DNA of 64,000 nucleotides from Alphaproteobacteria bacterium (GTDB lineage Bacteria > Pseudomonadota > Alphaproteobacteria > MPNO01 > UBA830): contig OZ251539.1 of NCBI GenBank assembly GCA_965243135.1, forward strand, positions 1,376,001 through 1,440,000. Direction: 5' to 3'. Positions 4,031 through 23,470 of the stretch are shown here, piece by piece. The position numbers and the translations under genes are program-made. Each line of letters opens with the position of its first letter. Within the stretch, counting starts at the first letter, position 1. The notes under the pieces are model-generated. The model was not told the DNA's origin, made no database searches, and saw nothing but the letters and a program-made list of their open reading frames with translations.

Positions 4031-4365
4031 TCGCGGCAAAAGTCCTCCGGGTGCCGGTGGGGTTGCGCTGAATGCCTCGGACGGCGACCCGGTGGATCCC
4101 GCCGCGGGCGGCGGCGCAGAACGCTGCGGCTTTCTCCGCGGACACGCCGCAGAAATCGCGGATCGGTGCGTCCGGGCGGAACCGTTTCGCCTTCTCAACA
4201 GGATGGAGATCTGCTTGCGGTTCGTCGCCAAGGAGGAAGGCAACGGTGCAGGTTCGAGCAGGCGTTGTGCGCCGGCCAGCCGTTCTGGACCCACCCATAT
4301 TGACGGTGTTCATGGCGTCCCGTATTCTATATTCGTCCAGTGAAAATTCGAATGAAGACCGACGC

Positions 4366-5526
4366 ATGCGCCTTACTCGCCTCACGCTCAAGAATTGGCG
4401 CAATTTCAAAAAGGCCGATTTCAAGATCCAGGATCGTATGCTGATAATCGGTTCCAATGCTTCCGGCAAGTCGAATCTGCTCGATGCGCTCCTGTTCCTG
4501 AAACAAATTGCCTCTCCAGGAGGGGGATTCCAGAAAGCTGTCGAGAGCCGCGGAGGCATGTCGCGCGTTCGTTGTTTGGCGGCCAGAAGCTTCAATCACG
4601 GATGGGTGACAATGGCGATTGAAATTGGCGACGACAAATGCTCCAGTCGTTGGTCTTACGACTTGACGTTCACCGCAGAACGTCGGGGACTTCATCGACC
4701 AATCGTCAAAAGCGAGATCGTAAGGAAGAACGGCGAGGTGTTGCTCGAAAGGCCTACGGAAGAGGACGACAAAGATCCTGAACAAATGACTCAAACGGAT
4801 CTGGAGCAGGTGAAGGCCAACAAAGAGTTCCGAAATATCGTTGAATTTCTGAAGTCGATCCGCTATCTTCATCTTGTTCCGCACATTATTCGGGACCCGG
4901 AACGTAGCGGAGACCGGAATGACGATCCATACGGCGCGGACTTTTTGCTTAGAATCGCCAAGACTCCACAGAAAACTCGCAACCGTCATCTAAAAAAAAT
5001 TAACGAAGCTCTTAAAGCCGCCGTGCCGCAACTTGATCGCCTTGAACTCAAGCGGGACAAAATGGGAAGCTGGCATCTGGAAGCGCGCTACCAGCATTGG
5101 CGTCCGCAAGGCGCGTTGCAGAATGAACGGGATTTTTCGGACGGCACGCTCCGTTTGATCGGTCTGTTGTGGTCCCTGATAGAAGAAGGACGAGTCGGAG
5201 GGCCAGTGCTTCTGGAGGAGCCTGAGTTAACGCTGCACTCGTCCGTGGTATGCCAGATCCCTGCTATCCTCAGCCGGGTTCGCGCTAATGGCGGTCCCCA
5301 AGTGGTAGTTACCACGCATTCTAACGAAATATTGCACGATCAAGGCCTCGGAAAAGATGAAGTTGTCGTACTCATTCCGGGCGCGGACGGTACGGAAACT
5401 CAAGAAGCCGCGGGGATCCCGGATATTCAAGATCTTCTGGATTCAGGTTTGAGCATGGCAGAAATCCTCTTGCCGAAAACCCAGCCCGAAATGGTTCATG
5501 AATTGCCCCAAAGAATTACTCAATAG
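4366..5526 (+). CDS. ABC/AAA_21-type ATPase (defence-associated)
   Basis: LKNWRNF, Walker A GSNASGKS, signature FSDGT, Walker B LLEEPE, H-loop TTHS. Confidence 0.9.
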   Translation: MRLTRLTLKNWRNFKKADFKIQDRMLIIGSNASGKSNLLDALLFLKQIASPGGGFQKAVESRGGMSRVRCLAARSFNHGWVTMAIEIGDDKCSSRWSYDLTFTAERRGLHRPIVKSEIVRKNGEVLLERPTEEDDKDPEQMTQTDLEQVKANKEFRNIVEFLKSIRYLHLVPHIIRDPERSGDRNDDPYGADFLLRIAKTPQKTRNRHLKKINEALKAAVPQLDRLELKRDKMGSWHLEARYQHWRPQGALQNERDFSDGTLRLIGLLWSLIEEGRVGGPVLLEEPELTLHSSVVCQIPAILSRVRANGGPQVVVTTHSNEILHDQGLGKDEVVVLIPGADGTETQEAAGIPDIQDLLDSGLSMAEILLPKTQPEMVHELPQRITQ

Positions 5527-7138: not shown

Positions 7139-8719
7139 ATGACGACTCGGTGGGAAAGGCTCGATGGCGACACGAGCGTGTTCGCGCTGAAGCTGTCATT
7201 CGCCTCCGATCCGGACGAAGGGCGGGGCATCGACCCCGAGACCGGCCTTTCTTGGGGGAGCTTCCAAATCTGGGTTCGGGACAGGAACCTGTGCGCCCAC
7301 TGGGAGGAAGGCGAGCGCATCGACTCGGTTCACTGGTATCTGCTGCCGCTGCTGGAGTGGTTTGCCCGCAACTGGGATGCCCTGCTTCACGAAGAGCGCC
7401 TGTCGGCGAAGAATGCGGGCGAGACCGCCTGGGAGTCGCTGCGGGCGACTTGTTTCCCGCCATCGGCCGACGACGAGGATAAGGCTTCCGCCTGGGAGGG
7501 CGCTTGGCATGGCTGGTGGTCCCGGCACGCCCTCCAGGCTGCAAGGGAAGGCGGATTGTTTCCCGACATCGTGCTCCGGCGCTTGCGGGACCGGGTAGAA
7601 GTCTCTTGGGGTTCCGTTCGCAGCGCGGGGATGCCGGGCCATTACCGATTCATGGAGTCGGACCGAGGCTCCGCTCTGCTGGAGCCGCAAGCGGTGGCTG
7701 GAGCGTTGCACGAGGTCCTGTCGCAGGCTGCGAGCTATCTGTCGTCGTCGATGCCGAATTCGAAGCGTATCGTGGCTTTGAACCGGAAGCTGCGAAATCT
7801 GAATGCGGGCGGAAAGGCCCGGAACGAAGCTCGCGAGCGACGGCTGGCATGGCTCGCCGGGCTGGGGACGACCAAGCACGGCATGCGGGCTGGGTGGCGC
7901 CGGGCGGTGGAAGGCCTGTTGCGTTCGGATCTGGCGGAGCGGCCGCGCCAGGCTCTGCTGGAAGCCGCGGAGACGCCGCTTGTCGTCACCGGTTCTTGCC
8001 ATGCCGCGCTTATGTTCGGTTCCCTCGCCCCCAACGTGACGGAGGCGGATGTCCAGGAGCTCGTTCGGGCGACGGTCGGCCTCTACGCCCCGGAGGGCGA
8101 GGCCGGGGCGATGAGCGGGATGTACCGCGCCGCGCCCATTGAGGACTCCGCCTCCCGCCCATGGAACCAGGGATACGAATTGGCGGAAAAGGTCCACGAG
8201 GATCTCGGTGGTGACTTCGAGAAGGGCGCTCTCGTCGATGTGAAAAGGCTGGTCGAGGCACTCGGCGTTCGCATCGAGCTACTGGACCTGTCGGACACGC
8301 ATGTGCGGGGTGTCTCCATCGCCGGCCCGCAGCACAGGCCTGGAATCTTCGTCAACGGGCGCCATGCCTCCAATGCCCATGAGGCCGGCCGCCGCTTCAC
8401 GCTTGCGCACGAGCTTTGCCACCTGTTGTTTGACCGGGAACAAGGGCGGCCGCTGGCCGTCGCCAGTGGACCCTGGGCGCCACGCGCCATCGAGCAACGC
8501 GCCAACGCTTTCGCAGCGATGCTGCTGATGCCTACGTCCCTGGTGAAGCGGACACTGGCGAGGTTGACGGTTGCGGTCGCCACGAAGGAAGGCGTGGACG
8601 AAGTGGCGGAACGCTTGGGCACCGGCCGCCTTGCCGTGCTCAATCACTTGGTGAATTTGGGCTTCATGGACGAGACGGACCAGCGACGACTGGAAGTCCA
8701 GTTGTCGTCCCTCGCGTGA
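7139..8719 (+). CDS. ImmA/IrrE-family zinc metallopeptidase with long N-terminal domain
   Basis: RRFTLAHELCH (HExxH) and EQRANAFAAMLLMP in the C-terminal third; 526 aa. Confidence 0.9.
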   Translation: MTTRWERLDGDTSVFALKLSFASDPDEGRGIDPETGLSWGSFQIWVRDRNLCAHWEEGERIDSVHWYLLPLLEWFARNWDALLHEERLSAKNAGETAWESLRATCFPPSADDEDKASAWEGAWHGWWSRHALQAAREGGLFPDIVLRRLRDRVEVSWGSVRSAGMPGHYRFMESDRGSALLEPQAVAGALHEVLSQAASYLSSSMPNSKRIVALNRKLRNLNAGGKARNEARERRLAWLAGLGTTKHGMRAGWRRAVEGLLRSDLAERPRQALLEAAETPLVVTGSCHAALMFGSLAPNVTEADVQELVRATVGLYAPEGEAGAMSGMYRAAPIEDSASRPWNQGYELAEKVHEDLGGDFEKGALVDVKRLVEALGVRIELLDLSDTHVRGVSIAGPQHRPGIFVNGRHASNAHEAGRRFTLAHELCHLLFDREQGRPLAVASGPWAPRAIEQRANAFAAMLLMPTSLVKRTLARLTVAVATKEGVDEVAERLGTGRLAVLNHLVNLGFMDETDQRRLEVQLSSLA

Positions 8720-8789
8720 GGTGCGCCCGGCGATGGCGAAGAGCCGGGCCTTGGTACAGGGTCGTCCGTCTGAAGGAGGGGACAGCGAC

Positions 8790-9342
8790 GCGCGCCCTCG
8801 AAGTCGCCGTTGCGCAAGGCGTCGGCAGACCTCCCGCGACAGCGTCCGGCGGTGGCCCCTCGCGGCGCGAATCATCCCGTCCCTGGAGAAATCGCGCCCG
8901 CAGTAGCGGCAAGGGTTGCCGCTCCATGGGGGAAAGGCCAGAAACGGAGACGCTCCTCGTCGGCGCCCCACGGCAGCCAGACAGCCGGGTCTTCAGGCGG
9001 CGGACGCCGGGCGCAGGCATTCAGCCATGGCGAGGCCATCGCGCCGAGGATAGAGCATGCCTGCCAACCGCGCTCCGTCTACGCTTTGCGGCGAGAGTTC
9101 CGGCTGAGGCCGCGCAAGCCGCGTTCGGCGGGGTTGTTGTCCACGGCCGCGTTGTCGACGAACACTGTCAGGCTGTCGCGGTGGCGCAGCAGGGAGTCCA
9201 GGCGTCTGCGTTGCGGTTTGCTTTCGGGAAGTTCGTTTCGCGCCTTCTTCGCTGTCGCGAAGAACGCTCGGGCGAACTTTGCGAACTGCTGTTGGGCGGC
9301 AGCGTTGCTCGGGCACGCCAGACGCCTGGCGTTGAGACGGTC
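8790..9342 (-). mobile_element. Internal fragment of the IS66/DUF4338 element
   Basis: Homologous to ~14040-14622 (DNNPAERGLRG; PCRYCGRDFS). Confidence 0.85.
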
Positions 9343-9894: not shown

Positions 9895-10136
9895 GGAAAA
9901 CCGAGAATTTTCCGCGTCGAGAACGTCGTTTTCGCACACCCCAAGCCGCTCCGAGACCGCAGACGATCGCCCGCGTTCGGACCCCCCAAGTTTGCCGCGC
10001 GGCATCAGGGCGACCGGATATTCCGTTTTCATTTCGCATTCGCCAGCCTGTGCAACCCTTGGGGCCGGCCGACGGCCGGCCGGGCGGTCCGCGGGAGCGC
10101 CGAGCTAACGACAAAAAAATAACGCAAACGCCCTCA
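9895..10136 (+). repeat. Dispersed non-coding repeat B, copy 1
   Basis: Shares gaccgca.acgatcgccc, caggg..accggatattccg and gacaaaaaat...gcaaacgcc with 23563-23819 and, more loosely, 42815-43020 (rc). Confidence 0.75.
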
Positions 10137-10293
10137 AGGTACATTGACTCGCCGACGATCCCGGACTATCGTAATAATTGAGGTTGCTACCCTCCTGTGG
10201 CAAATGTAGAGATGGATGGATGATGACTGAATCTTTCTGCGTCTGAATTTCGCGGCTAGAACTTGCTGGAATCGTAAGGTTAAACTACAGCTT

Positions 10294-10965
10294 TTGGATC
10301 GCTATATGCCTGCAAGACCGCTGACCCCACCTAGGCGCGTCGATGCTCTGGTTGATTGGAACAGCCAATTTCATATGGTCCAGAACCGGTCACTTCCCCC
10401 GCATTCAGCGTCACTGTCTCGGCTTGTTCTCAAATACCTCTGCCGAAACGTAAGCGAATGTCTGGTCAAGGCCGAGCCAGGCGGCAGGTTTGAAGTGCAC
10501 CTCCGAGCATATCACGGCTGGCATAACGGCTTCCAGCCAACACCACGGAGAAGGGCCGCTATTGATGCACAGTCTGGCGACCCAAACGATCCGAACGACC
10601 AAGGCCTGTTAGGCTACTCGCCTCGACGAGAGGTGATTTTTCGTTCGTTTGCGTTCGGCGACAAGCTTCTTTTTGCGCTTGATAAACGTTTACATGTTGG
10701 ACTGGATTGCCATCTGCCGGGAACCCTTCAGCGGATTCGCGACGATTACGAAGAAAAGATGGTTGATACGGCACTTGCAAGTGACCTTGTCTATCTTGCG
10801 CTCTCGGATACGAATAGCTGGCTTATGGTTGTCGGGCAGGATCGCGATCTGGTGCCCGCACTCTACGTTGCCGAGGCGGCGGTCGACGGAACGGAACGCC
10901 GCGTGTTTTTTCTCGCCCGCGATAGCATAAGTCTACTCAAGCTGGATGGGTTACAATATCCATGA
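10294..10965 (+). CDS. NYN/PIN-fold ribonuclease-like protein (start may be ATG 10306)
   Basis: Acidic active-site pattern ALVDWNS ... EKMVDTALASDL ... VVGQDRDLVPAL. Confidence 0.75.
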   Translation: MDRYMPARPLTPPRRVDALVDWNSQFHMVQNRSLPPHSASLSRLVLKYLCRNVSECLVKAEPGGRFEVHLRAYHGWHNGFQPTPRRRAAIDAQSGDPNDPNDQGLLGYSPRREVIFRSFAFGDKLLFALDKRLHVGLDCHLPGTLQRIRDDYEEKMVDTALASDLVYLALSDTNSWLMVVGQDRDLVPALYVAEAAVDGTERRVFFLARDSISLLKLDGLQYP

Positions 10966-13160
10966 ACGCTCCTGTTCCCCTGATCCGTAGTGACCTCGTG
11001 CCTTTTGCGGATTTCGGCACGGAAGTGCCGGAACCGCGGGTGACCGAATCCGAACGTAGATTCACTCTCACCCGTAACGGAACCGAGTGGACAATTACGG
11101 TCGGATCGGATCAGCGCATCACGCTGTCCGGACCCGTTGACCAGAGGCAGTCCTTTCCGTCCGCGGCAGCGATGTTCGCCGGACCTGCGTTTGGAGATCT
11201 TGATCGCTGGTCGCGGCATCAGGCTTATGTCTCCATGAAGTCGGCTAGCTCCGCTGAACCGATTCCGATGATGGGAACTTTGCGAACAGCCGAGAGCGGG
11301 ACAACGGACTCGGATGCGTTAGATCTTGACGTCGAAAAATTAGATGCGTTCCTGACGGCGCATCGATCCAGCATGACGACCGATACATCCCTCATCCTAG
11401 TCGTTGACGGACCGGCCGGAAGCGGAAAAACAACTCTCATCGAGGATCTGACACTCCGCCGCGCCAATGCATGGCAGAGCTATTTGAAGCCTTTGGTTCT
11501 TCATGTAGAGAGCCGTGGACGTGTGTTACAGAATCTGCGAGACTTATTGGCGTTTAGCTTGCAAACGTTGCGTGTGACGGTCACCTACGATCAGGTCGTG
11601 CCGCTGGTGCGGCACGGCCTTGTCATGCTGGCGATAGATGGCTTCGACGAGCTAGCTGACCCGACCGGTTACCAGACGGCTTGGTCGCAACTCAACGAAT
11701 TGATAATCCATACGCGAGGTCGGGCAACCTTGATAATGGCAGGACGAGAATCTTTCATTTCGCGCCCCCGGGTGGAGAGGGCGTTGCCGGCGTATAGGCG
11801 GAAAGACGATCGGATGCCATTGTTTACCATTGACGAGGTACGTCCTCATGAGGCGAAGAAATGGCTTCAAGGCCTTGGATGGACGGACGCGGCCTTCTCG
11901 TTACCGGCTGTGGAACCTATATTTGAACCAGGTTCATATGCGTTGCGACCGGTTTTCCTCTCACAGTTCCATCACCTGAAGGACGAGCTTCAAGAACGGA
12001 ACGAGATTGTTTCAGATCTGCTATCCTTTCTTGTTGAGCGGATGCTGGATCGGGAGTCGAGCAAGTTTACCGAGGCTGTTGAGGGAAACGAATTGCCGCG
12101 GATCCGAAGCTTTTTGAAGCGTCTGTTGCAGGAGATCGCGCGCGATTTGGCCGAGAATCAAGTTAACGCTATTCCAAACGAGAGTTTACGCTGGATCGCT
12201 GAGTTTGTCGCATCCGGGGTTTTCCCTTCTGATTTTGTCGACCTCCTTGTTAACCGAGCTGAAAGCGTTGCCTTTTTGATGCCTGACGCGCGCTTCGAAC
12301 ACACGCGTTTTAGTCATGAGCAAATTTCGATCCATTTTCTCGCTCAGGAAAGCCTGCGAGCGATTGCCGATGGCGAAGTGCCGAAGTATGTTCGGCGTAA
12401 CATTTTCGGTCGAGAGGTCTTGGATGGATTTGCGCGAGCTGTAGAATCGCTAGATGCTCTCAAGGCTAATGAATTCGTTACGGCTTGCAAAAAACAGTTT
12501 ACCGTGTTCGGAAATGCGGACAGGTCGAAGCGGAATCTAGCGGCGTTGGCTATAGTCGTTTCTTGCATGGTGGAGATCCCGTCAGAAGAACCGCTGCGTT
12601 TTGACAATGTCGACTTGGGCGAAATTCTGATACCGGCGGATGCTGCGCCAATCGTTTTTTCCAAAGTTGTCATCGGGACGCTCTATGCAAGGAATGTAGA
12701 TCTGACGTCCATTGTCTGGGACAATGTAGGAATCGTTACGCTTTTTTCGAACGAATTTACTGTGTACGGAGACGGTATTCCGTTGCCTGCCGTAGTGGAG
12801 CTGCCTGGAAGGACATTGCGAAATCGTCAAGAGATCGAAGAATGCCTATACCCGGTAACGTCCTCTATGAGCGCAGAGGGATCGACTGCGTCGGTGGAAG
12901 ATGTTGATCTTCTTAAACGGATCGACCGATACCGTCACTTCTGGTTGCGTGAAGCTCGGGATACTACAGATCGATCCGCCCGCAAGATCATCAGTGATCC
13001 AAACTGGGCAAGGGTTCGTCAAATTTTGCTGGAAAAACAGCTTATGATAGAGCGCACCGTTGCAGCTTCCGGTCCCCACGATAAGTTTATACACTTTCGC
13101 AACTCCATAAATAAGTTCGCTGATAATTATGAGTTGATTTCCGCTCTTCAAAATGGATGA
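10962..13160 (+). CDS. NACHT/STAND P-loop NTPase (NLR-like)
   Basis: Walker A VDGPAGSGKTT, Walker B LAIDGFDEL, AGRESF; C-terminal beta-solenoid-like stretch (FDNVDLGEI, ARNVDLTSIVWDNV); ATGA overlap with the NYN gene. Confidence 0.85.
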   Translation: MNAPVPLIRSDLVPFADFGTEVPEPRVTESERRFTLTRNGTEWTITVGSDQRITLSGPVDQRQSFPSAAAMFAGPAFGDLDRWSRHQAYVSMKSASSAEPIPMMGTLRTAESGTTDSDALDLDVEKLDAFLTAHRSSMTTDTSLILVVDGPAGSGKTTLIEDLTLRRANAWQSYLKPLVLHVESRGRVLQNLRDLLAFSLQTLRVTVTYDQVVPLVRHGLVMLAIDGFDELADPTGYQTAWSQLNELIIHTRGRATLIMAGRESFISRPRVERALPAYRRKDDRMPLFTIDEVRPHEAKKWLQGLGWTDAAFSLPAVEPIFEPGSYALRPVFLSQFHHLKDELQERNEIVSDLLSFLVERMLDRESSKFTEAVEGNELPRIRSFLKRLLQEIARDLAENQVNAIPNESLRWIAEFVASGVFPSDFVDLLVNRAESVAFLMPDARFEHTRFSHEQISIHFLAQESLRAIADGEVPKYVRRNIFGREVLDGFARAVESLDALKANEFVTACKKQFTVFGNADRSKRNLAALAIVVSCMVEIPSEEPLRFDNVDLGEILIPADAAPIVFSKVVIGTLYARNVDLTSIVWDNVGIVTLFSNEFTVYGDGIPLPAVVELPGRTLRNRQEIEECLYPVTSSMSAEGSTASVEDVDLLKRIDRYRHFWLREARDTTDRSARKIISDPNWARVRQILLEKQLMIERTVAASGPHDKFIHFRNSINKFADNYELISALQNG

Positions 13161-13210
13161 TGCAAGTATAGAATGTGCCGGGTACAGATCTATTTTTGCA
13201 AAATTTTGTC

Positions 13211-13323
13211 GTGTAACTAACCCCGAGCTGCCGGACGTCCGAAACCGTTCCGCAACCGATGATATTTTCGCGGCGGTGCTCACTGTTTGAGAATTCGGGA
13301 ATGGGACGCTGAGGACGCTGAGG
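13211..13323. repeat. Repeat A partial copy
   Basis: gtgtaactaaccccgagctgccgg...gagaattcggga...gacgctgagg matches 724-830. Confidence 0.7.
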
Positions 13324-13374
13324 TCTGCTTCGTGGTGCAAGTCTGACGTAAGCGTTCGGTCGTGGGGTGACGGT

Positions 13375-14165
13375 CTATTTGTTGAGGCTCCTCTTCCAGT
13401 CCCGCCGCAGGGGCTTCAGCGTCCTTGACCGGGAGAGCGCGTTCTTTCCGGGTCTTGCCCCGGCCCTGTGTTTTGCCGACCTTGCTGGCGGCCCGGTAGC
13501 AGCTTCCTTCGAAGCGCGGCGCCTCGCAGAAGGTCTCGAGCAGGACCGGAGCGTAGCGGTGCTCCCAGTCGTCCGGCAACCGTCGTTCGACCAGAGCGAG
13601 GGGACGCGAGGTTTTTTATCCGAACCCAGGGCAGGAACCGGGCATTGTTGACCGCCAGCGGTGCGGCGGCGGGTCTCGGGGTTCCACGAGCTTGTCCCGG
13701 GGCGCGATCTTCCAGGCCGCGGCGCCGAAGCCGAGGACGGCGAGGGGTTCGCCGCCAGCGGCCCGGACGAAGTATCGCATTTGCGCGCCGGGCAGCGTGG
13801 AGTAGCCAAGATAATGGTAGCGAGCGACGAACTCGTTCCAGAGGCGGCCTTCGCCTGCGTTCCGGACAGGCTCCGCGGCGACGGGCTGGACATCGGCGAG
13901 ACGTTCGGGGACCGGGAACAGGGGCCTGTCGGTCGCGGGGCCGGGCACGGGCGTACGGTCGGCGTTTGCCTCGGCGGCGGCAGGACGATCACGCCGTGCA
14001 TGCGCAACATGGCCACCCGCGCGCTCATATCCTTTAGGCCGCCGTCGGGCTTGCGCCAGTCGAGGCGCCGGCAGACCTCCCGCGGCAGCGCCCCGCGGCT
14101 GAGGCTGCACCTCAGGGAGCGGCTCGTCCTCGGAGAAGTCGCGCCCGCAGTAGCGGCAAGGGCCG
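13375..14165 (-). pseudogene. DUF4338 (DruA-like) protein, multiply frameshifted
   Basis: LWNEFVARYHYLGYSTLPGAQMRY...LGFGAAAWKIAPRD; PVLLETF...FEGSCYRAA...GKTQGRGK. Confidence 0.8.
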
Positions 14166-14169
14166 CCGC

Positions 14170-15690
14170 TCACGGTCCCTGGGGGAGAGGCCAGGAGCGG
14201 AGGCGCTCCTCGCCTGCGCCCCATGGTAGCCAGTCAGCAGGGCCTTCGGGCGGTGGACGACGGGCGCAAGCATAATCAAGCAGCCAGCTGTACGGCGAGA
14301 TGCCGGCCATCGTGCCGAAGATGGACATGCCCGCCAACCGCGCTCCGTCCACGCTTTGCGACCCGAACGAAAGTTTCCGGCTGAGGCCGCGCAAGCCGCG
14401 TTCGGCGGGGTTGTTGTCCATGGGAACGGCCGCGTTGTCCACGAAGGTTGTCAGGCCGTCGCGGTGGCGCAGCAGGGAGTCCAGAGGGCCGCGTTGCGCC
14501 GCGCTCTCCGGGAGCGCGTCCCGCGCCTTTTTCGCCGCCGCGAAGAACGCTTCGGCGAACCTCGCGAGCCGCCGCTGGGCGGCGGCGTTGCCCGGGCTCG
14601 CCAGACGTCTGGCGTTGAGACGGTACAATGCGTGACGAAGCCACTTTTGGGCGAACCGCGCGAGGTTCGGGTAGCCGGTCTCGAGGTTGACGAAGTCGCG
14701 CCTGGCATGGACCCAGCAATATGAAAGGACGATGCACCCCTCCATGACGCGCGCCAGCAGGCGGAGTAGCGGTCGCAGACCAAGTAAGCCGCCTGTCCGG
14801 GCGAGCCGAGCCCCCTGAACAACTCAAGGGCGGCTTCCGCGCTGCGTGACGGCAACGATGCGGACCGCGTCCGTCGCCCGGGCGGCCCAGGCGCGAGCGT
14901 TGCCTCCGTCCTCCTCGTCCAACTCCCGTCCACCCCGTTTCGTCGCCGTGAACGACCGGCGCCTCCGACAGGCGCCGTGAGATCTCTTCGTCGAGCGGTC
15001 AGGCGCAGGAACCGTCGCTGGGCGTCCGCCAACGTGCCGGGGGCGAGCCCGTGCTGGCTTAGCGCGCGGCAGACCGAACGCAGCGGACGATGCAGGCCGT
15101 ACCTCTCCGCCAGGACGTTCGCCCAGACGGAGACTCCGTACCGGGTAAACAGCCTCGCCGGGGCCGGGCCGACGACCTCCTTTTCCGGTCGGCAGGTACA
15201 GGCCGGGCGCAGCCGCTTCCGTCGAATCCTCCTGACATAGGTGACGGTCCTGGTTTCGACGAGCTCCGTGTCCTTCCAACCGTTCGAGACCCAGGCCTTG
15301 CCGCAGTCCGGGCACGTGCGCTCGTCCGGAATCGACTCTTCCTCGCGAACGGGCAGTTCGGGGCGCTGCGTGCGACCATGCGACGGCGTTCCCTGGCGGC
15401 GCCCCCGGCGTCGACCGGTTGCCGTAGGCCGCCGCTCGCTGCGGCGCCCGAACAACTCCCGGGCAAACCTGCGGCTGCGGGACTTCAGACTCTCGTTCTC
15501 CGGCGTTTCCGCAGTTCGACACGGGGGCGGCACCTCATGTCTCTTTATCTCGGCGTCGCAGCAACACTTCTCCGCTTTCTGGACCGCGGTCTCCAGCTCC
15601 CGGCCGAGATCCGCACTCTCCCGGCGCGCCGCGGGCAGCTCCTGGCCGCCGCCCGACAACTCGGTCCCCGGAAGTGAATGTTCGCTCGAC
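14170..15690 (-). pseudogene. tnpC: IS66 TnpC transposase, degenerate
   Basis: LFGRRSE, zinc finger CPDCG...CTC, LVCDRYSA, CWVHARRDF, MDNNPAERGLR. Confidence 0.85.
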
Positions 15691-16530: not shown

Positions 16531-16862
16531 CGAGAGTGTTCATGGCTGACGCTTGCTTCTCGGGCTGCAAGCGTTGGCCTGCGACGGACATTCGACCTGT
16601 GACGCACGGCCACTGGCCTTGACCGGCTCCCATTCGACGAGCTTGACGCTCCGGACGGGTTTTTCGGTGCCGGTTTTGCCACCATGCTTGCACCGTGCGA
16701 GGTTTCCAGGAGTGCGCTGAAGGTGGCTCCGTGTCTCTTCCGGGCGCGCCCGGATGCCTTGAACTTCCGCGGGCTCGGCGTCCCGCACGGCTGATAGGCT
16801 GCCCTGTTTCGGAGCGGTGTCCCGTGCGTGCGATCGGGCGCGGCAGGCGTTATAGTTCACCC

Positions 16863-18461
16863 ATGCGCCGTTTCAATACAGAGGGGCCGGTGCGCCCGGA
16901 CAAGCACTACGCCATCCAGCCGCTGGAGCGGATGGGCTTGGAGAAACTGCTGGACCTGATTCGGACCCGGAACTACTTCGTGCTGCACGCGCCGCGCCAG
17001 ACGGGCAAGACCTCCGCCCTGATCGCCCTGCGCGACCTGCTCAACAGCGGCGAAGCCGGCAATTTCCGTTGCGTGGACGTGAACGTCGAATCCGCCCAAG
17101 TGGCGCGGGACGACACCGCGCGCGGCATCCGCGCCATTCTGGGCAGCCTGGCCACGAGCGCGCGTCTGCTGGGCGACGACTACCCGGACGGCGTCTGGCC
17201 GGACATTCTGGCGAAGGCGGGGCCGGATAGCGCGCTGAACGAGCTGCTCTCCCGCTGGTGCGCGGCGAACCCGACGCCGCTGGTGCTGCTGGTGGACGAG
17301 ATCGACTCGCTGGTCGGCGACACCCTGCTCTCGGTGCTGCGCCAGCTCCGCGCCGGCTACGAACATCGTCCCGAGGGCTTTCCGCAGAGCGTCGTGCTGT
17401 GCGGGTTGCGCGATGTCCGCGACTACCGCATCCGGTCGACCGTCGGCGAAGTCGTCGCCGGCGGCAGCCCGTTCAATGTCGCGGCGAAGCCGGTTCGCCT
17501 GGGCGACTTCACCGAGGCGGAGACGCGCGCGCTGATGGCGCAGCACACGGAGGAGACCGGCCAGCGCTTTTCGGAGGCGGCGCAGGAAGCGGTGTGGACG
17601 CAGACGCGAGGCCAGCCGTGGCTGGTGAATGCGCTGTGCGCGGAGGCATGCTTCGACAACAAGGCGGGGCGGGACCGCTCGCGGACGATCGAACCGGACG
17701 ACGTCTACGCGGCGCGGGAGGAGCTGATCCTGTCGCGGCGCACGCATCTTGACCAGCTGCTGCACAAGCTTGAGGAGGAGGAGCGGGTGCGGCGCGTCGT
17801 CGAGCCCATCCTGGCCGGCGGCCTGCCGCAGTACGATGCCGACGACTTGGGGTACGCGCGCGACCTGGGCCTGCTCGCGCCGGACTCGCCCCCGCGCATG
17901 GCGAACCCGATCTATGCGGAGATGGTGCCGCGCGAACTGGGCTATATCCTGCAAAGCAGCCTGGACATGCAGTTGGCTTGGTACGTGGACGGGCGGCTGG
18001 ACATGACGAAGCTGCTGACGGCGTTCCGCGCGTTCTTCGGCGAGCACGCGGAGCATTGGCTGGAGCGCTTCAGCGAGTATCCGGAGGCTGGCCCGCAACT
18101 CATCCTGCAGGCGTACCTGCAGCGGGTGGTGAACGGCGGCGGGCGGATGGAGCGGGAGTACGGCCTCGGGCGGGGGCGGACGGACCTTCTGGTGCTGTGG
18201 CCGCGGGAGGCGGGTCAGCCGTCGGATCTGTGGGAGCGTTTCGTGGTCGAGTGCAAGGTGCTGCGGGACTCGGACCGCAAGAGCTTGGAGCGGACCGTCG
18301 AGCAAGGGGTGGAGCGGACGCTGGGCTACATGGCGAAGTGCGGGGCGGACGAAGGGCATCTGGTGGTGATCGACCGCCGGGCCGCCGCGGAAGAGCGCCG
18401 GAGCGGCGAGGCGGGCGGGGACCGGCAGGACGAGCGCGGGGTGACGGTCTGGGCGCTGTAG
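16863..18461 (+). CDS. AAA-like ATPase with C-terminal PD-(D/E)XK domain
   Basis: MRRFNTEGP, HAPRQTGKTS, LLVDEID; C-terminal EREYGLGRGRTDL...VVECK. Confidence 0.88.
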   Translation: MRRFNTEGPVRPDKHYAIQPLERMGLEKLLDLIRTRNYFVLHAPRQTGKTSALIALRDLLNSGEAGNFRCVDVNVESAQVARDDTARGIRAILGSLATSARLLGDDYPDGVWPDILAKAGPDSALNELLSRWCAANPTPLVLLVDEIDSLVGDTLLSVLRQLRAGYEHRPEGFPQSVVLCGLRDVRDYRIRSTVGEVVAGGSPFNVAAKPVRLGDFTEAETRALMAQHTEETGQRFSEAAQEAVWTQTRGQPWLVNALCAEACFDNKAGRDRSRTIEPDDVYAAREELILSRRTHLDQLLHKLEEEERVRRVVEPILAGGLPQYDADDLGYARDLGLLAPDSPPRMANPIYAEMVPRELGYILQSSLDMQLAWYVDGRLDMTKLLTAFRAFFGEHAEHWLERFSEYPEAGPQLILQAYLQRVVNGGGRMEREYGLGRGRTDLLVLWPREAGQPSDLWERFVVECKVLRDSDRKSLERTVEQGVERTLGYMAKCGADEGHLVVIDRRAAAEERRSGEAGGDRQDERGVTVWAL

Positions 18462-19760: not shown

Positions 19761-21140
19761 GGCCGTGGCTCTCATGGCGTTGAACTGAATAAAGAATTCT
19801 GTCAATATAATGTTGATGAAGGACTCTAGATGTATTTTTCAGCGGAACAGATAAAGAGAGCGATAATCCAACTAAAGGATGTTCACCCTTTTTTTGGTAT
19901 AACTTTTCTTGCCTGTAAAAAAGAAAATTTGCCGATTGGAAAGCCGATTAAATTTCATTTAGGAAGAATAACTAAAGAGCACATGGAAAAACATCACAAA
20001 TTAAATCAAAATTCCAAACACTATTTTCAGCCATTTCATAGAACAAGAAGATGGGTTAGAAATGATTATCCATCCAGCGGGTTACAAGAGATCAATACGC
20101 AAACCTTCAAAGACGCCTTTATTCATCCGCCCAAAAGGCCGCAATGGGGATGGTCCGACGATTACATCAGCTTCTTGAATAAATTTCTTTCTCGCAATAT
20201 GGGGGAAAACAAAATTCCAGCTTACGCCTTGGCTGTCTGGTTATATAAGGAGCAAGAAGTATCGGACGCCACCGCGATGGAATTGATTTCAAAATTCATG
20301 GAAGAATATAACATTATCGAAGAAGAGACCCATTTTTTTAATCAACAGGCAACGGTATCGGACGGTGGCCCCACCGAAGCGCATGTTGCTGTCTGGCGCG
20401 ATCTTCGTCCATTCGTCGGCCGTCCTCCGGATGCGTCGCCCATAAGAGGCGGCCCGCTCGGGCATCTTCATATTAGAGGGAGTGGGCCAGCGCCAGAGCT
20501 TCGTATGGAGCCTTCCGAACACATGACGATCATTACGGGGGACAATGGCCTGGGAAAGACGTTTCTGCTCGATTGCGCTTGGTGGGCGCTAACCGGTACA
20601 TGGGCGGACCAGCCTGCCACGCCCCGGGATGACAGCGCCAAAAGGAATGTTTTGATTTCTTTCGGAATTCGGGACCAAGAACTAATGGAGGCGGGCGAAG
20701 CTTTCACGCAAGAAGTATCCTATAATTGGGATTTGCAAGAGTGGTCGAAGGCCGACAGGACAGCTACCGTACCCGGGCTGATCTTGTATGTACGCGTGGA
20801 CGGTTCCTTTGCGATATGGGATCCGATTCGACGCGCGGAAGCGCAAAATGGGGCGGAAAATCAAACCGCCCTTTCAAGTAAGGAAATATGGTATGGTAAA
20901 GAAGGAAAAACGGAAGGCCTGATTAGGGATTGGGCACAATGGCAGAGTAATCCAAAGACTTCGCCGTTTTCGATTTTTTCAAAAATCTTGAAAGCACTAT
21001 CGCCGCCGGATCTTGGTGAGCTGTCACCAGGAAAGCTTGTTCGTTTGCCTCGCGAATTGCGACCTATTCCGACTATCCGGCATAACTATGGCGAAATTCC
21101 GATTGTAAGCGCATCAGCCGGCGTGAAGAGGATAGTCACG

Positions 21141-22223
21141 CTAGTGTTCTGTCCCAGAAATACGCATAGATAATCTTTGAACCTTTTCGAGAATGGATTC
21201 GGCGGTGGCAATCCAAACGAAGGGAGCGGCATCGCGATTGTAGTCCTCGGTGAACTGCTTGATGCATTTCACCAATTGGCTGACGTTTGCGAACGATCCC
21301 CGGCGAAGGGCGGTCTCCGTGATGAGGCCAAACCAGCGCTCGACCTGATTGAGCCAGGAAGCGTAGGTCGGCGTGAAGTGGAGATGGTAGCGAGGTCGCT
21401 GCGCTATCCAGGCGCGAACCTTGGGATGCTTATGGGTCGCGTAGTTGTCGGCCACCAAATGGATGTCGAGTTCTTTGGGGACGTTGCGGTCGATGAGGCG
21501 CAGAAAATCGAGGAAATCCTGGTGGCGATGACGTTGCTTGCAGGTGGCGATGACCTGCCCGGTGGCAATGTCGAGCGCGGCGAACAACGTGGTGGTGCCG
21601 TGGCGGATGTAGTCATGGGTGTAGCCCTCGACATAGCCAAGCCCGAGGGGCAGGGTCGGCTGGGTACGGTCGAGGGCCTGAATCTGCGATTTCTCGTCGA
21701 CGCACAGCACCACCGCGTGTTCCGGAGGGTTGAGGTACAATCCAACGATGTCGCGCACTTTCTCCACGAAGAACGGGTCTGTCGACAGCTTGAACGTCTT
21801 GCGCAGGTGGGGCTTGACGCCGAACAACTCGAACCAGCGCTGGACGGTGCTCTTCGAGAGGCCGGCATGGCGGGCCATTGAACGAACGCTCCAGTGCGTC
21901 GCATTCTTCGGCGTTTCCTGAAGGGCGCTCTTGATGACCTCGGCAACCCGTTCGTCATCGTATGTTCGGGGCCGGCCGCTGCGCAACTCGTCGTGTAGCC
22001 CTTCGGTCCCGCCTTCCACAAACCGCTTTCGCCATTTGCCTACGGTCAACGGCGATACGTCGAGCTTTTCGGCGACCGCCTTGTTCGACATTCCCGCAGC
22101 GCAATCCAGAACGATCTTGGCGCGTAGAGTCAAACCGGAAGGCAGCGACGTTGCATTCGCAATGCTGCGCAATTGCGCTTCCTGATCCAAAGTGAGAACG
22201 AGCGGCGGCTTTCCTTTCGGCAT
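21141..22223 (-). CDS. IS630 transposase
   Basis: HTH; [22 protein letters not shown] (DDE triad); 360 aa uninterrupted. Confidence 0.95.
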
Positions 22224-22284
22224 GGCGACCTCCTCCTGAAAATGCCCATGCCTGTATATAATATGTATTTGAGGGACACAACAC
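21144..22284 (-). mobile_element. Intact IS630 element
   Basis: 20-bp imperfect TIRs (gtgttctgtcccagaaatac / gtatttgagggacacaacac); TA duplication at a CTAG target. Confidence 0.95.
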
Positions 22285-22861
22285 TAGCGTACCTTTTGGT
22301 ATGGCTCTTGGAGGAACATTATATACGCGCACGCTTTATCAAGCGTCTTCCCGAGAATAGAATTGTCGTACTCGTCGATGAAATGGAAGCGCATCTGCAT
22401 CCAAAATGGCAACGGCTAGTGCTGCCGACCGTTATTTCTATAATAGAATCCGATTTAAAAGAAAGGTATAACGATATAAGCGCTCAGATCATTGTTACCA
22501 CGCATTCGCCGTTGGTTCTTGCATCTATAGAAGCCAAATTTGATGACGAAAAAGACTCTCTGATTCACCTTGGATTAAAGGAGGGAGAACCAATATTGGA
22601 ACCAATAAACTTTATCAAATACGGCAGCGTAGAGCTTTGGTTGACTTCGCCAATTTTTGGACTCGGGGATGCACGATCTCGCGAAGCTGAAGCCGCCATT
22701 TTCCAAGCGATGGAGCTGAAAGATCTTAAATTATTGGAGAACCAGGAAATTGGTCGGGAAGAAATTTGGGAAGTGACAGAGAAATTACGTAAGCATCTGC
22801 CGGATCATGACGATTTTTGGCCTCGTTGGATCGGATTTGCCAAAAAATTTGGCGTCGATAT

Positions 22862-23470
22862 ATGATCCCGGTGGTGAGACAGCCCGAACCGAGCGATTTT
22901 AATCGGCTTGTAAGGCGACCTGGTCGAACATTTATTATGGCGAATAATCCACGAAAGAGTAAAGAGTTTGAGCCATATTGGAGGAGAATAAGTCAAGATC
23001 TCCATGAGGCGTACAGCAACACTTGTGCGTACACCTGTATCTACTTGGCGTCGTTGTCGGGAACCGTGGATCATTTTATACCAAAGAGCGGATGTCCCCG
23101 CTTAGCATATGAATGGGATAATTATAGACTTGCATTGAATGTCGTAAATCAATACAAAGACAACTCGGTGGGTCTTTTGGATCCATTCGAGATCGGGGAG
23201 GATTGGTTTGCTTTGGATTTTCCCACTTGTTATGTTATTATCGGTGATCAAATGCCGAATTACCTAATCGATAAGGCGAAGGAAACAATTGAAATTCTGA
23301 AGCTAAACGAAAATTATTTTGCGCGTCTGCGTTTCAGTATCGTTAAAAATTTCTGGAATAGGGAACTGGAATGGCCGACGTTGCAACAAAAATATCCTTT
23401 TTTAGCGAATGAATTGGAAAGGCAGGATCTTAGAAACAGGAGACAAATACGTCTGCGTTTTCAATTTTGA
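22862..23470 (+). CDS. ptuB: HNH endonuclease (Septu PtuB-like)
   Basis: CAYTC...TVDHFIPKS...LAYEWDNYRL...N.YK...LLDPF; ATGA overlap with ATPase stop. Confidence 0.8.
   Translation: MIPVVRQPEPSDFNRLVRRPGRTFIMANNPRKSKEFEPYWRRISQDLHEAYSNTCAYTCIYLASLSGTVDHFIPKSGCPRLAYEWDNYRLALNVVNQYKDNSVGLLDPFEIGEDWFALDFPTCYVIIGDQMPNYLIDKAKETIEILKLNENYFARLRFSIVKNFWNRELEWPTLQQKYPFLANELERQDLRNRRQIRLRFQF

Follow-up and report, generated by a model that had tools for sequence, protein, structure and literature searches.

A two-gene cassette of a NYN-like protein and a NACHT NTPase as a candidate NLR-like defence system in an alphaproteobacterium

Two overlapping genes in an alphaproteobacterial genome probably constitute a self-contained and horizontally mobile NLR-like anti-phage module, so far unnamed, whose effector is supplied in trans. 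They lie in the window, by which we mean the whole stretch of 64,000 nucleotides that was analysed (Table 1). Both genes are uninterrupted and on the same strand, and the stop codon of gene 1 shares the four bases ATGA at 10962-10965 with the start codon of gene 2. The homologues of gene 1 favour ATG 10306 as the start, which would probably give a protein of 219 aa. Because full-length homologues exist, with an E of 0 for NACHT and as low as 3e-132 for NYN, both ORFs are genuine and did not arise by chance. The G+C content is 0.50-0.56 across 10001-13500 and 0.66-0.70 on either side, and the cassette is bracketed by two IS66-like fragments in direct orientation. The initial annotation had described two intact, ATGA-coupled genes, AT-richer than the backbone and surrounded by decayed elements, and this description was borne out, the decayed elements being the IS66-like fragments, the remnant of an IS66 transposase and a DruA/DUF4338 fragment. 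A scan for promoters and terminators stayed at chance level, with 3 promoter matches in the region against 2.0 +/- 1.6 expected.

Table 1. Coordinates of the gene pair, its motifs and domains, and the flanking elements within the window
Feature	Position	Strand	Remarks
IS66-like fragment, left copy	8878..9341	.	direct repeats D1-D3, 82-98% identical to 14125-14624
Sigma-70-like promoter match (TTGACT, 17 nt spacer, TATCGT)	10144..10172	+	upstream of gene 1; lead only
Gene 1, putative divergent NYN/LabA-like (PIN-fold) nuclease	10294..10965	+	223 aa from TTG 10294
D21 (in VDWNS, aa 20-24)	10354-10356	+	candidate catalytic Asp of gene 1
D158 within EKMVD (aa 154-158)	10753-10767	+	candidate catalytic Asp of gene 1
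D183/D185 in DRD (aa 183-185)	10840-10848	+	candidate catalytic Asp of gene 1
Gene 2, NACHT-type STAND NTPase	10962..13160	+	732 aa; start overlaps stop of gene 1
Gene 2 N-terminal domain (about aa 1-110)	10962..11291	+	invariant F15/D17 motif PFADxGT
Walker A GPAGSGKT (aa 150-157)	11409..11432	+	G150, G153, G155, K156 invariant 89/89
Walker B IDGFDE (aa 225-230)	11634..11651	+	D226, G227, F228, D229, E230 invariant 89/89
Beta-solenoid-like stretch (aa 545-620)	12594..12821	+	secondary structure of model
DruA/DUF4338 fragment	13616..14224
IS66-like fragment, right copy	14125..14624	.	overlaps IS66 transposase remnant
IS66 transposase remnant	14170..14745	-	PF03050 DDE_Tnp_IS66, 1.5e-16

The pairing of the two families is close to obligate. 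Co-occurrence had been proposed as a check on the initial annotation, and it was observed in both directions. Eighty genome-contig loci were picked with peptide patterns of the NACHT protein only, and a NYN-family ORF, counted whether complete, interrupted or truncated at a contig end, stood directly upstream on the same strand in 77 of them. The three misses were a NACHT gene cut by the contig end (L014), an N-terminally truncated remnant (L083) and the locus L048, to which we return below. Among 52 metagenome loci picked by the NYN motif alone, 50 carry the family, and a NACHT ORF followed in all 46 informative loci, those with at least 200 nt downstream. Both full-length NYN matches in a sample of 400 genomes of the phylum were likewise followed by a NACHT gene. 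At the junction, the genes overlap by four bases in 41 of the 77 loci and to some extent in 54, and are separated by 0-15 nt in 19; in the remaining 4 the NACHT gene is frameshifted. No third conserved gene was found, the commonest flanking family being present in 8 of the 80 loci at varying positions. The pairwise identities of the NYN and NACHT proteins correlate with r = 0.93 over 3916 pairs, in line with co-evolution, although the number overstates independence because the sequences are kin to one another. A search for longer proteins recovered no NYN-NACHT fusion that would link the two in function, which is weak evidence, and the best 150 of 928 representatives were 68-403 aa long. The same genome also has a second copy of the pair, with identities of 28% and 31%, the same gene order and the same 4-base overlap. 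It lies between acyl-CoA dehydrogenase-like and peptidase-like ORFs, as named by eye from their translations.

Gene 1 appears to encode a divergent NYN/LabA-like protein, as suggested by several weak but concordant lines of evidence, its own Pfam score staying under the cut-off. The acidic motifs which the initial annotation had pointed out, VDWNS, EKMVD and DRD, are present, and D164 is a further candidate catalytic residue. All of the unique full-length homologous pairs (89 of 89) retain D21, D158, D164, D183 and D185. Pfam and hhalign place these residues on the motifs of canonical NYN domains, where they align with D7, D97 and the D114/D116 region. They follow the pattern of the NYN metal site, with an N-terminal D, the D in K-x-V-D, another D after it, and D-x-D ahead of the last helix. 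The family profile of gene 1 also matches a 205-aa protein (6.6e-8 and 7e-11) which is a bona fide member of PF01936 (56 bits, 8e-15). The assignment to NYN made in the initial annotation finds support in the five aspartates and in this match, but gene 1 itself scores 13 bits against Pfam NYN (PF01936; E 0.15), under the cut-off of 24.2. At E <= 1, 21 of 28 relatives of gene 1 matched Pfam NYN, the best at 5.2e-5, and hhalign against canonical NYN domains gave a probability of 4.9% and an E of 0.008. A search of PDB sequences with the NYN family profile gave matches at chance level only.

The AlphaFold2 model of gene 1 has a pLDDT of 92.1. In the Foldseek search against the PDB, the LabA-like structure 2qip was the match with the best probability (0.98), and CARF or ring-nuclease folds (7pq2, 9w3u, 3qyf) and other Rossmann-like folds scored about like it, all of them above an E of 0.001. 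This ranking would suit a different reading, in which the NYN-like protein is the sensor or regulator, a Rossmann/CARF-like binder of nucleic acids or nucleotides, and the N-terminal domain or the oligomer of the NACHT protein is the effector. The conservation of that N-terminal domain, which has no known family, would agree with it as well, and so would its retention beside a different partner in L048. We consider this reading unlikely, because the five invariant aspartates fall on the metal-site pattern of PIN/NYN enzymes, the gene 1 profile finds a true PF01936 protein, and no CARF family in Pfam was matched at E <= 1 by any of the 28 members scanned.

Gene 2 encodes a STAND NTPase of the NACHT type, and its model matches the NLR fold, which consists of an NTPase followed by helical and winged-helix domains. 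Pfam NACHT (PF05729) matches residues 146-247 with 28.8 bits, over the cut-off of 26.7 (E 1.3e-6), and a precomputed match to this family is present in most homologues. Its Walker A motif fits GxxxxGK[ST], and DGFDE in Walker B fits the NACHT signature D[GAS]hDE, as worded by Kibby et al. (bioRxiv 10.1101/2022.07.19.500537). R262 is invariant in the 89 unique pairs as well, and the active sites of both proteins thus look live, judging from the invariance of their residues. The AlphaFold2 model (pLDDT 81.5) has its best Foldseek matches in the PDB with NOD2, NLRC4 and NLRP3, at E of 6e-11 to 1e-8 and a probability of 1.00; the global TM-scores, at 0.25-0.35, are low, which is normal where a chain has several domains. 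A search of PDB sequences with the NACHT profile returned nothing at E <= 0.01. The NACHT core read in the initial annotation is confirmed by the two motifs, the Pfam score and the NLR-like matches.

Outside the core, the domains of gene 2 are less familiar. Its first ~120 aa matched no domain in Pfam, NCBIfam or PADLOC and contain no recognisable fused effector, in agreement with the initial annotation, and a search of the Atlas with the N-terminal domain gave scores of at most 0.82, which is the noise level. F15 and D17 of this domain are conserved in 89 of 89 pairs, and we regard it as a candidate adaptor for the partner protein. The C-terminal part had been called beta-solenoid-like. The model bears this out in part, with paired short strands at a spacing of about 20 residues over aa 545-619, but Pfam returned no repeat family for gene 2 at E <= 1, pentapeptide repeats included. 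The helical region, this stretch and a C-terminal alpha/beta domain (aa 645-732) together could be the sensor.

L048 bears on the role of the N-terminal domain. At this locus a DUF1643 gene (6e-37) takes the position of the NYN gene, with the same 4-base overlap, and the NACHT protein shares 78% identity with another whose partner is NYN. From this close relative it appears that the partner slot of the NACHT protein is exchangeable, NYN being replaced by DUF1643. The N-terminal domain was kept despite the different partner (about 70% identity over aa 1-120), which fits poorly with an adaptor that is specific to one partner. Prediction of the NYN-NACHT complex, another check put forward with the initial annotation, lent weak support to binding. 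The median ipSAE was 0.49 (runs 0.59, 0.00 and 0.49) and the best control reached 0.01, but one run scored 0.00 and no interface was reported; the partner pLDDT was at least 78 and the runs agreed in at least 0% of contacts. In calibration, 58 of 80 solved complexes and 2 of 110 mismatched pairs attained the mark of the tool, but those that did so at a score of 0.60 or under were only 7 of the 80 and both mismatches.

The pair is rare, patchy, accessory and mobile, with low G+C content and IS66 fragments on both sides. It occurs across several bacterial phyla and in some prophages. There were no full-length relatives in 40 related genomes, and of the 400 other genomes sampled from the phylum, 3 matched the NYN profile. 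In IMG/VR, the pair is complete on the 3 contigs that have room downstream, where it adjoins genes for tail, baseplate, terminase-like, Ogr-like late activator or SSB proteins. Because 50,697 records of isolated phages and 72,556 plasmid records gave no match, its carriage on mobile elements rests on these three contigs.

As a rare and patchily distributed set of a putative nuclease and its closely coupled partner, with IS fragments on either side and carriage on prophage-like contigs, the two genes might also be an addiction module like a toxin-antitoxin system. The NYN protein would then be a toxin that the NACHT protein restrains, and the pair would stabilize mobile DNA without dedicated sensing of phages. 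The weakly supported complex in the prediction would be in line with this as well. However, known antitoxins do not resemble an NLR-type NTPase of 732 aa whose Walker motifs are invariant. Two loci (L007 and L021) have a frameshifted NACHT gene beside an intact-looking NYN gene, which argues against an indispensable antitoxin unless the frameshifts are assembly errors of the MAGs. Protection from phage has moreover been demonstrated for several NACHT proteins (Kibby et al., bioRxiv 10.1101/2022.07.19.500537), and we judge the addiction module to be quite improbable.

Canonical NYN/LabA genes are common core genes, with PF01936 matched in 19 of 21 related genomes, and the second copy of our pair has the two neighbours named by eye above. 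One could therefore suppose that the pair processes or turns over RNA under the control of NTP, as a housekeeping or regulatory function outside any conflict. We hold this to be very improbable, because the pair was not found in the 40 related genomes and in only 3 of the 400 of the phylum, and its foreign composition, its place in a defence island and its phage neighbours are unlike those of core genes.

The pair in the window sits in a defence island. The window also contains a HEC-01A ATPase (5e-152), a Septu system with PtuB and a PtuA gene that is split by an IS, and an M78 peptidase like capP/RmrA. At other loci, some of the adjoining genes encode type III or type II methyltransferases, DpdE, DndH, DrmA/DrmD and PDC candidates. 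The PADLOC scan of the neighbours counted hits per family without a background control, and these genes are given as examples only.

No description of a NYN and NACHT operon was found in the literature searched, PADLOC has no model of the pair, and neither protein is matched by a specific model in PADLOC, NCBIfam or Pfam. The view in the initial annotation that the pair belongs to no named system holds to this extent, with the proviso that supplementary tables, among them those of a 2026 STAND survey, may list the clade. The nearest relatives in design are the bNACHT proteins, which resemble gene 2 in their central NACHT NTPase, D[GAS]hDE Walker B and variable C-terminal region, and resemble the pair in their defence islands, horizontal spread and predicted NLR-like fold, as far as they are described. 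According to Kibby et al. (bioRxiv 10.1101/2022.07.19.500537), the effectors of bNACHT proteins are fused domains, mostly N-terminal; the bNACHT01 clade has none, and bNACHT01 itself is described as standing outside an operon. NYN does not appear in the main text of that report, whose Table S1 may list the family as a clade. Gene 2 differs in that its first ~120 aa have no known domain, and the candidate effector is a separate, coupled NYN-like gene. A fused effector or adaptor, which marks all bNACHT clades except those like bNACHT01, was not recognized in gene 2, as aa 1-120 match no family.

HEC-09, a NYN (MARF1-like) protein proposed as a defence candidate of RNase type, is the sole PADLOC model that touches gene 1. 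The match (E 5.5e-5) extends over 51 residues, at model positions 97-147 of 203, and we rejected the identity of gene 1 with HEC-09 because this partial match covers the catalytic core only. HEC-09 is described as a single gene with an HTH-like N-terminus, embedded in Hma systems, which gave no protection in the tests of its authors (Payne et al., bioRxiv 10.1101/2024.01.29.577857), and unlike gene 1 it is presented there without an NTPase partner. Gene 2 was also compared with Avs2. The PADLOC model matched with an E of 0.0021 over aa 115-170 and the NCBIfam model with an E of 0.15 and 9.9 bits, its cut-off being 1000. Both matches cover the P-loop only, and the candidate was rejected. The effectors of Avs proteins are fused. 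These STAND NTPases are reported to oligomerise on phage proteins and to activate a nuclease or other effector (10.64898/2026.01.04.697583). Hachiman, Gabija, Septu and HEC-03 (PIN + ABC ATPase) follow the same logic as our pair in their available descriptions, with a nuclease effector beside a controlling NTPase and in complex with it. However, their NTPases are helicases or of the ABC/OLD type and not NACHT/STAND, their nucleases are not NYN, and PADLOC gave no sequence relationship between them and the pair.

For the pair we infer defence, physical binding, a mechanism of activation, a substrate and a trigger along the following lines. The NACHT protein would be both sensor and switch, whose C-terminal half detects a cue of infection. 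Binding of NTP at the invariant Walker A/B site would then lead to its oligomerisation. The overlapping stop and start codons may ensure that synthesis of the two proteins goes hand in hand, and the NYN-like protein would be held by the NACHT protein, probably through the conserved, enzyme-free N-terminal domain of the latter. Assembly of the NACHT protein would turn the NYN-like effector on, and the activated protein would cut nucleic acid with a metal-dependent site of the PIN/NYN type. The substrate in this model is more likely RNA, the alternatives being that the protein is a DNase or an inactive binder. In the end, phage replication or the infected cell would be stopped.

Characterised bacterial NLR-like defences such as bNACHT and Avs carry, in the accounts available, their effector on the same polypeptide. 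If our interpretation is true, the NACHT sensor of this widespread family would have shed its effector and would always be accompanied by a separate nuclease. With two proteins only, the pair would then be a simple system for studying how an NLR-type oligomer brings in a separately encoded enzyme and switches it on, the step that defines animal inflammasomes. We tentatively extend it to a minimal bacterial inflammasome, in which the NACHT oligomer may recruit the trans nuclease by a new adaptor domain and activate it by induced proximity, with an exchangeable partner slot. Such a system would parallel the recruitment of caspases by animal NLRs and not the fused-effector design of characterised bacterial NLRs. 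A NYN-type nuclease would also join the proven anti-phage effectors; the sole NYN candidate tested so far, as described by its authors, gave no defence. The natural replacement of NYN by DUF1643 and the presence of two divergent pairs within a single genome provide ready material for tests of specificity.

The NYN-like gene and the NACHT gene (genes 1 and 2) form a real, intact two-gene module that is widely but thinly distributed. Both open reading frames (ORFs) lie uninterrupted at exactly the coordinates of the initial annotation, and they are joined, as it described, by the ATGA at 10962-10965, in which the gene 1 stop codon overlaps the start codon of gene 2. Because homologues of 219 aa begin at the ATG at 10306, this is probably the true start of gene 1. 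The pair is indeed AT-richer than its surroundings, with a GC content of 0.50-0.56 compared to 0.66-0.70 in the flanks, and the decayed elements described around it were found again as two IS66-like fragments that enclose the cassette, an IS66 transposase remnant and a DruA/DUF4338 fragment. The left repeat region encodes a similar N-terminal DruA/DUF4338-like peptide at 8279..8971 (-).

Features of the window around the NYN-NACHT pair
Feature	Position	Strand	Remarks
HEC-01A ABC-type ATPase	4072..5526		PADLOC 5e-152; Pfam AAA_21, AAA_15
M78/IrrE capP/RmrA-like peptidase	7139..8719		526 aa; peptidase is the C-terminal domain; capP 1.5e-16, RmrA models down to 6e-13
IS66-like fragment, left copy	8878-9341		direct orientation; 82-98% identical to right copy
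Gene 1 (NYN-like)	10294..10965	+	223 aa from TTG
Gene 2 (NACHT)	10962..13160	+	732 aa
DruA/DUF4338-like fragment	13616..14224	-	Pfam 8e-11, model positions 53-119 of 297; adjoins IS66 remnant
IS66-like fragment, right copy	14125-14624		direct orientation; overlaps IS66 transposase remnant
AAA_22/AAA_35-type ATPase	16695-18461		588 aa; no PADLOC match; just past IS remnants
Septu, disrupted	19830..23470		PtuA split into 19830..21173 and 22173..22865; PtuB 22817..23470
DDE_3/HTH transposase gene	21141..22223		minus strand; interrupts PtuA

Co-occurrence of the two families was evident from both sides. Peptide patterns specific to the NACHT protein, run over a genome collection, picked out 186 relatives; in 77 of the best 80 loci an NYN-family ORF lay directly upstream on the same strand. 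Among the three misses, one locus (L014) is cut at a contig end, another (L083) is an N-terminally truncated remnant, and the third (L048) carries a DUF1643 gene in place of NYN. A metagenome collection scanned with the NYN motif only gave 52 loci, 50 of which carry the NYN family, the other two encoding a different protein with the same motif. Leaving out four of the 50 with less than 200 nt downstream, the NACHT ORF came next in 46 of 46, some of these loci being one sequence from different samples. Of the 77 junctions, 54 are overlaps (41 of them of 4 bases) and 19 leave a gap of 0-15 nt; in the remaining 4 the NACHT gene is frameshifted. There is no conserved third gene, the commonest flanking family occurring in 8 of the 80 loci. 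Across pairs of loci, identity in one protein follows identity in the other (r = 0.93), a correlation inflated by sequence relatedness. In seven loci (L007, L021, L031, L058, L072, L079 and L082) one or both genes are split by frameshifts; many such relatives come from long-read MAGs, in which decay is indistinguishable from assembly error.

By record titles, the loci cover Alpha-, Beta- and Gammaproteobacteria, Acidobacteriota, Spirochaetia and one myxobacterium. Of 400 sampled genomes of the phylum, three matched the NYN profile, and the NACHT gene follows both full-length matches; the pair is present in about 0.5% of the sample. A search of 40 related genomes yielded no full-length relative. 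With this distribution in view, we consider a housekeeping role very improbable. The same genome holds a second, strongly diverged copy (G000:C1:3368596-3371384, minus strand; locus L002 1411-4289), whose proteins of 212 and 747 aa are 31% and 28% identical to those in the window, with the same gene order and 4-base overlap. It lies between acyl-CoA dehydrogenase-like and peptidase-like ORFs, both named by eye from their translations.

The NACHT core proposed for gene 2 is supported. The protein exceeds the Pfam NACHT cut-off (28.8 vs 26.7 bits) and contains both GPAGSGKT and IDGFDE, the latter fitting the NACHT signature D[GAS]hDE given in the Kibby et al. preprint. Its AlphaFold2 model (pLDDT 81.5) best matches NOD2, NLRC4 and NLRP3 in the PDB (E 6e-11 to 1e-8), and no sequence-related solved structure was found. 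Searches of Pfam, NCBIfam, PADLOC and the Atlas gave no match for the first ~120 residues, which include an invariant, family-specific F15/D17 motif, PFADxGT, at the extreme N-terminus (aa 11-19, window 10992-11018). Of the suggested C-terminal beta-solenoid-like stretch, the model retains paired short strands at aa 545-619, beyond the NTPase and helical domains, and adds a C-terminal alpha/beta domain; however, no repeat family matches, and the stretch is therefore solenoid-like by model only.

Gene 1 is NYN-like on pieces that are individually weak and concordant. Its own Pfam NYN match has an E of 0.15, and a partial PADLOC match to HEC-09 points the same way. NYN is the sole recurring family among 28 relatives (21 match, best 5.2e-5), and the family profile matches a clear PF01936 member at 6.6e-8 and 7e-11. 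All 89 unique homologues share the five aspartates D21, D158, D164, D183 and D185. Alignment by hhalign with canonical NYN domains of related genomes superimposes K-x-V-D and D-x-D, although at a probability of only 4.9%. R71-x-Y73-x-G75-W76 (window 10504-10521) is equally invariant and family-specific, being absent from canonical NYN domains. Foldseek of the model (pLDDT 92.1) gave no PDB match at E <= 0.001; LabA-like 2qip had the best probability, and CARF-type folds scored similarly. That the NYN protein is instead a sensor or regulator seems to us unlikely.

The window is a defence island, and this context fits a predicted anti-phage role of the pair. The ~350-aa N-terminal region of the M78/IrrE-type protein has no family match. 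At other loci, immediate neighbours include methyltransferases, DpdE, DndH, DrmA/DrmD and PDC candidates in a scan without background control. Three IMG/VR contigs extend far enough downstream, and all of them hold the complete pair, which lies among phage genes. L094 encodes an Ogr-like late activator, a terminase-like protein and a minor tail protein directly upstream, L093 has baseplate genes downstream, and SSB and a partition/Arc-like gene are present in L092. Against such a role, neither 50,697 isolated phage records nor 72,556 plasmid records matched the pair. Its interpretation as an addiction module appears improbable.

Among known kinds, the bNACHT/NLR-related anti-phage proteins come nearest; unlike them, the gene 2 family carries no fused effector and has a near-obligate separate NYN-like partner. 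PADLOC HEC-09 matches gene 1 partially (5.5e-5); only the NYN core is common, and we rejected this identity. HEC-09 consists of one gene, for which Payne 2024 reports no defence when tested. Avs2 was likewise rejected for gene 2, the similarity being confined to the P-loop. In agreement with the initial annotation, the pair is undescribed in what was accessible of Kibby 2022, Payne 2024, Kaur 2020 and 2021, HEPN and Dnd surveys, DefensePredictor, a nuclease-NTPase preprint and a 2026 STAND survey, whose supplementary tables, outside this scope, may list the clade.

An NLR acting through an effector in trans is the best-supported reading of the pair, and we hold it to be probable with some reserve. 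The NACHT protein would sense through its C-terminal half, NTP binding would lead to its oligomerisation, and the co-translated NYN protein, once bound, would be switched on to cleave nucleic acid. Complex prediction gave a median ipSAE of 0.49 (runs 0.59, 0.00 and 0.49; best control 0.01) and returned no interface; by the tool's own calibration, most passes at <=0.60 are wrong unless the pairing was already likely, and the result lends weak support to the predicted binding. In one Pseudomonadales MAG (L048 3492-6229), a DUF1643 gene (PF07799, 6e-37) occupies the NYN position, with a 4-base overlap at the NACHT start. This NACHT protein keeps its N-terminal domain, which does not suit a strictly partner-specific adaptor. 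It is 78% identical to the NACHT protein of L055, whose partner is NYN, and the replacement may be an effector swap. Though a single case, it hints at an upstream position in which effectors can be exchanged.
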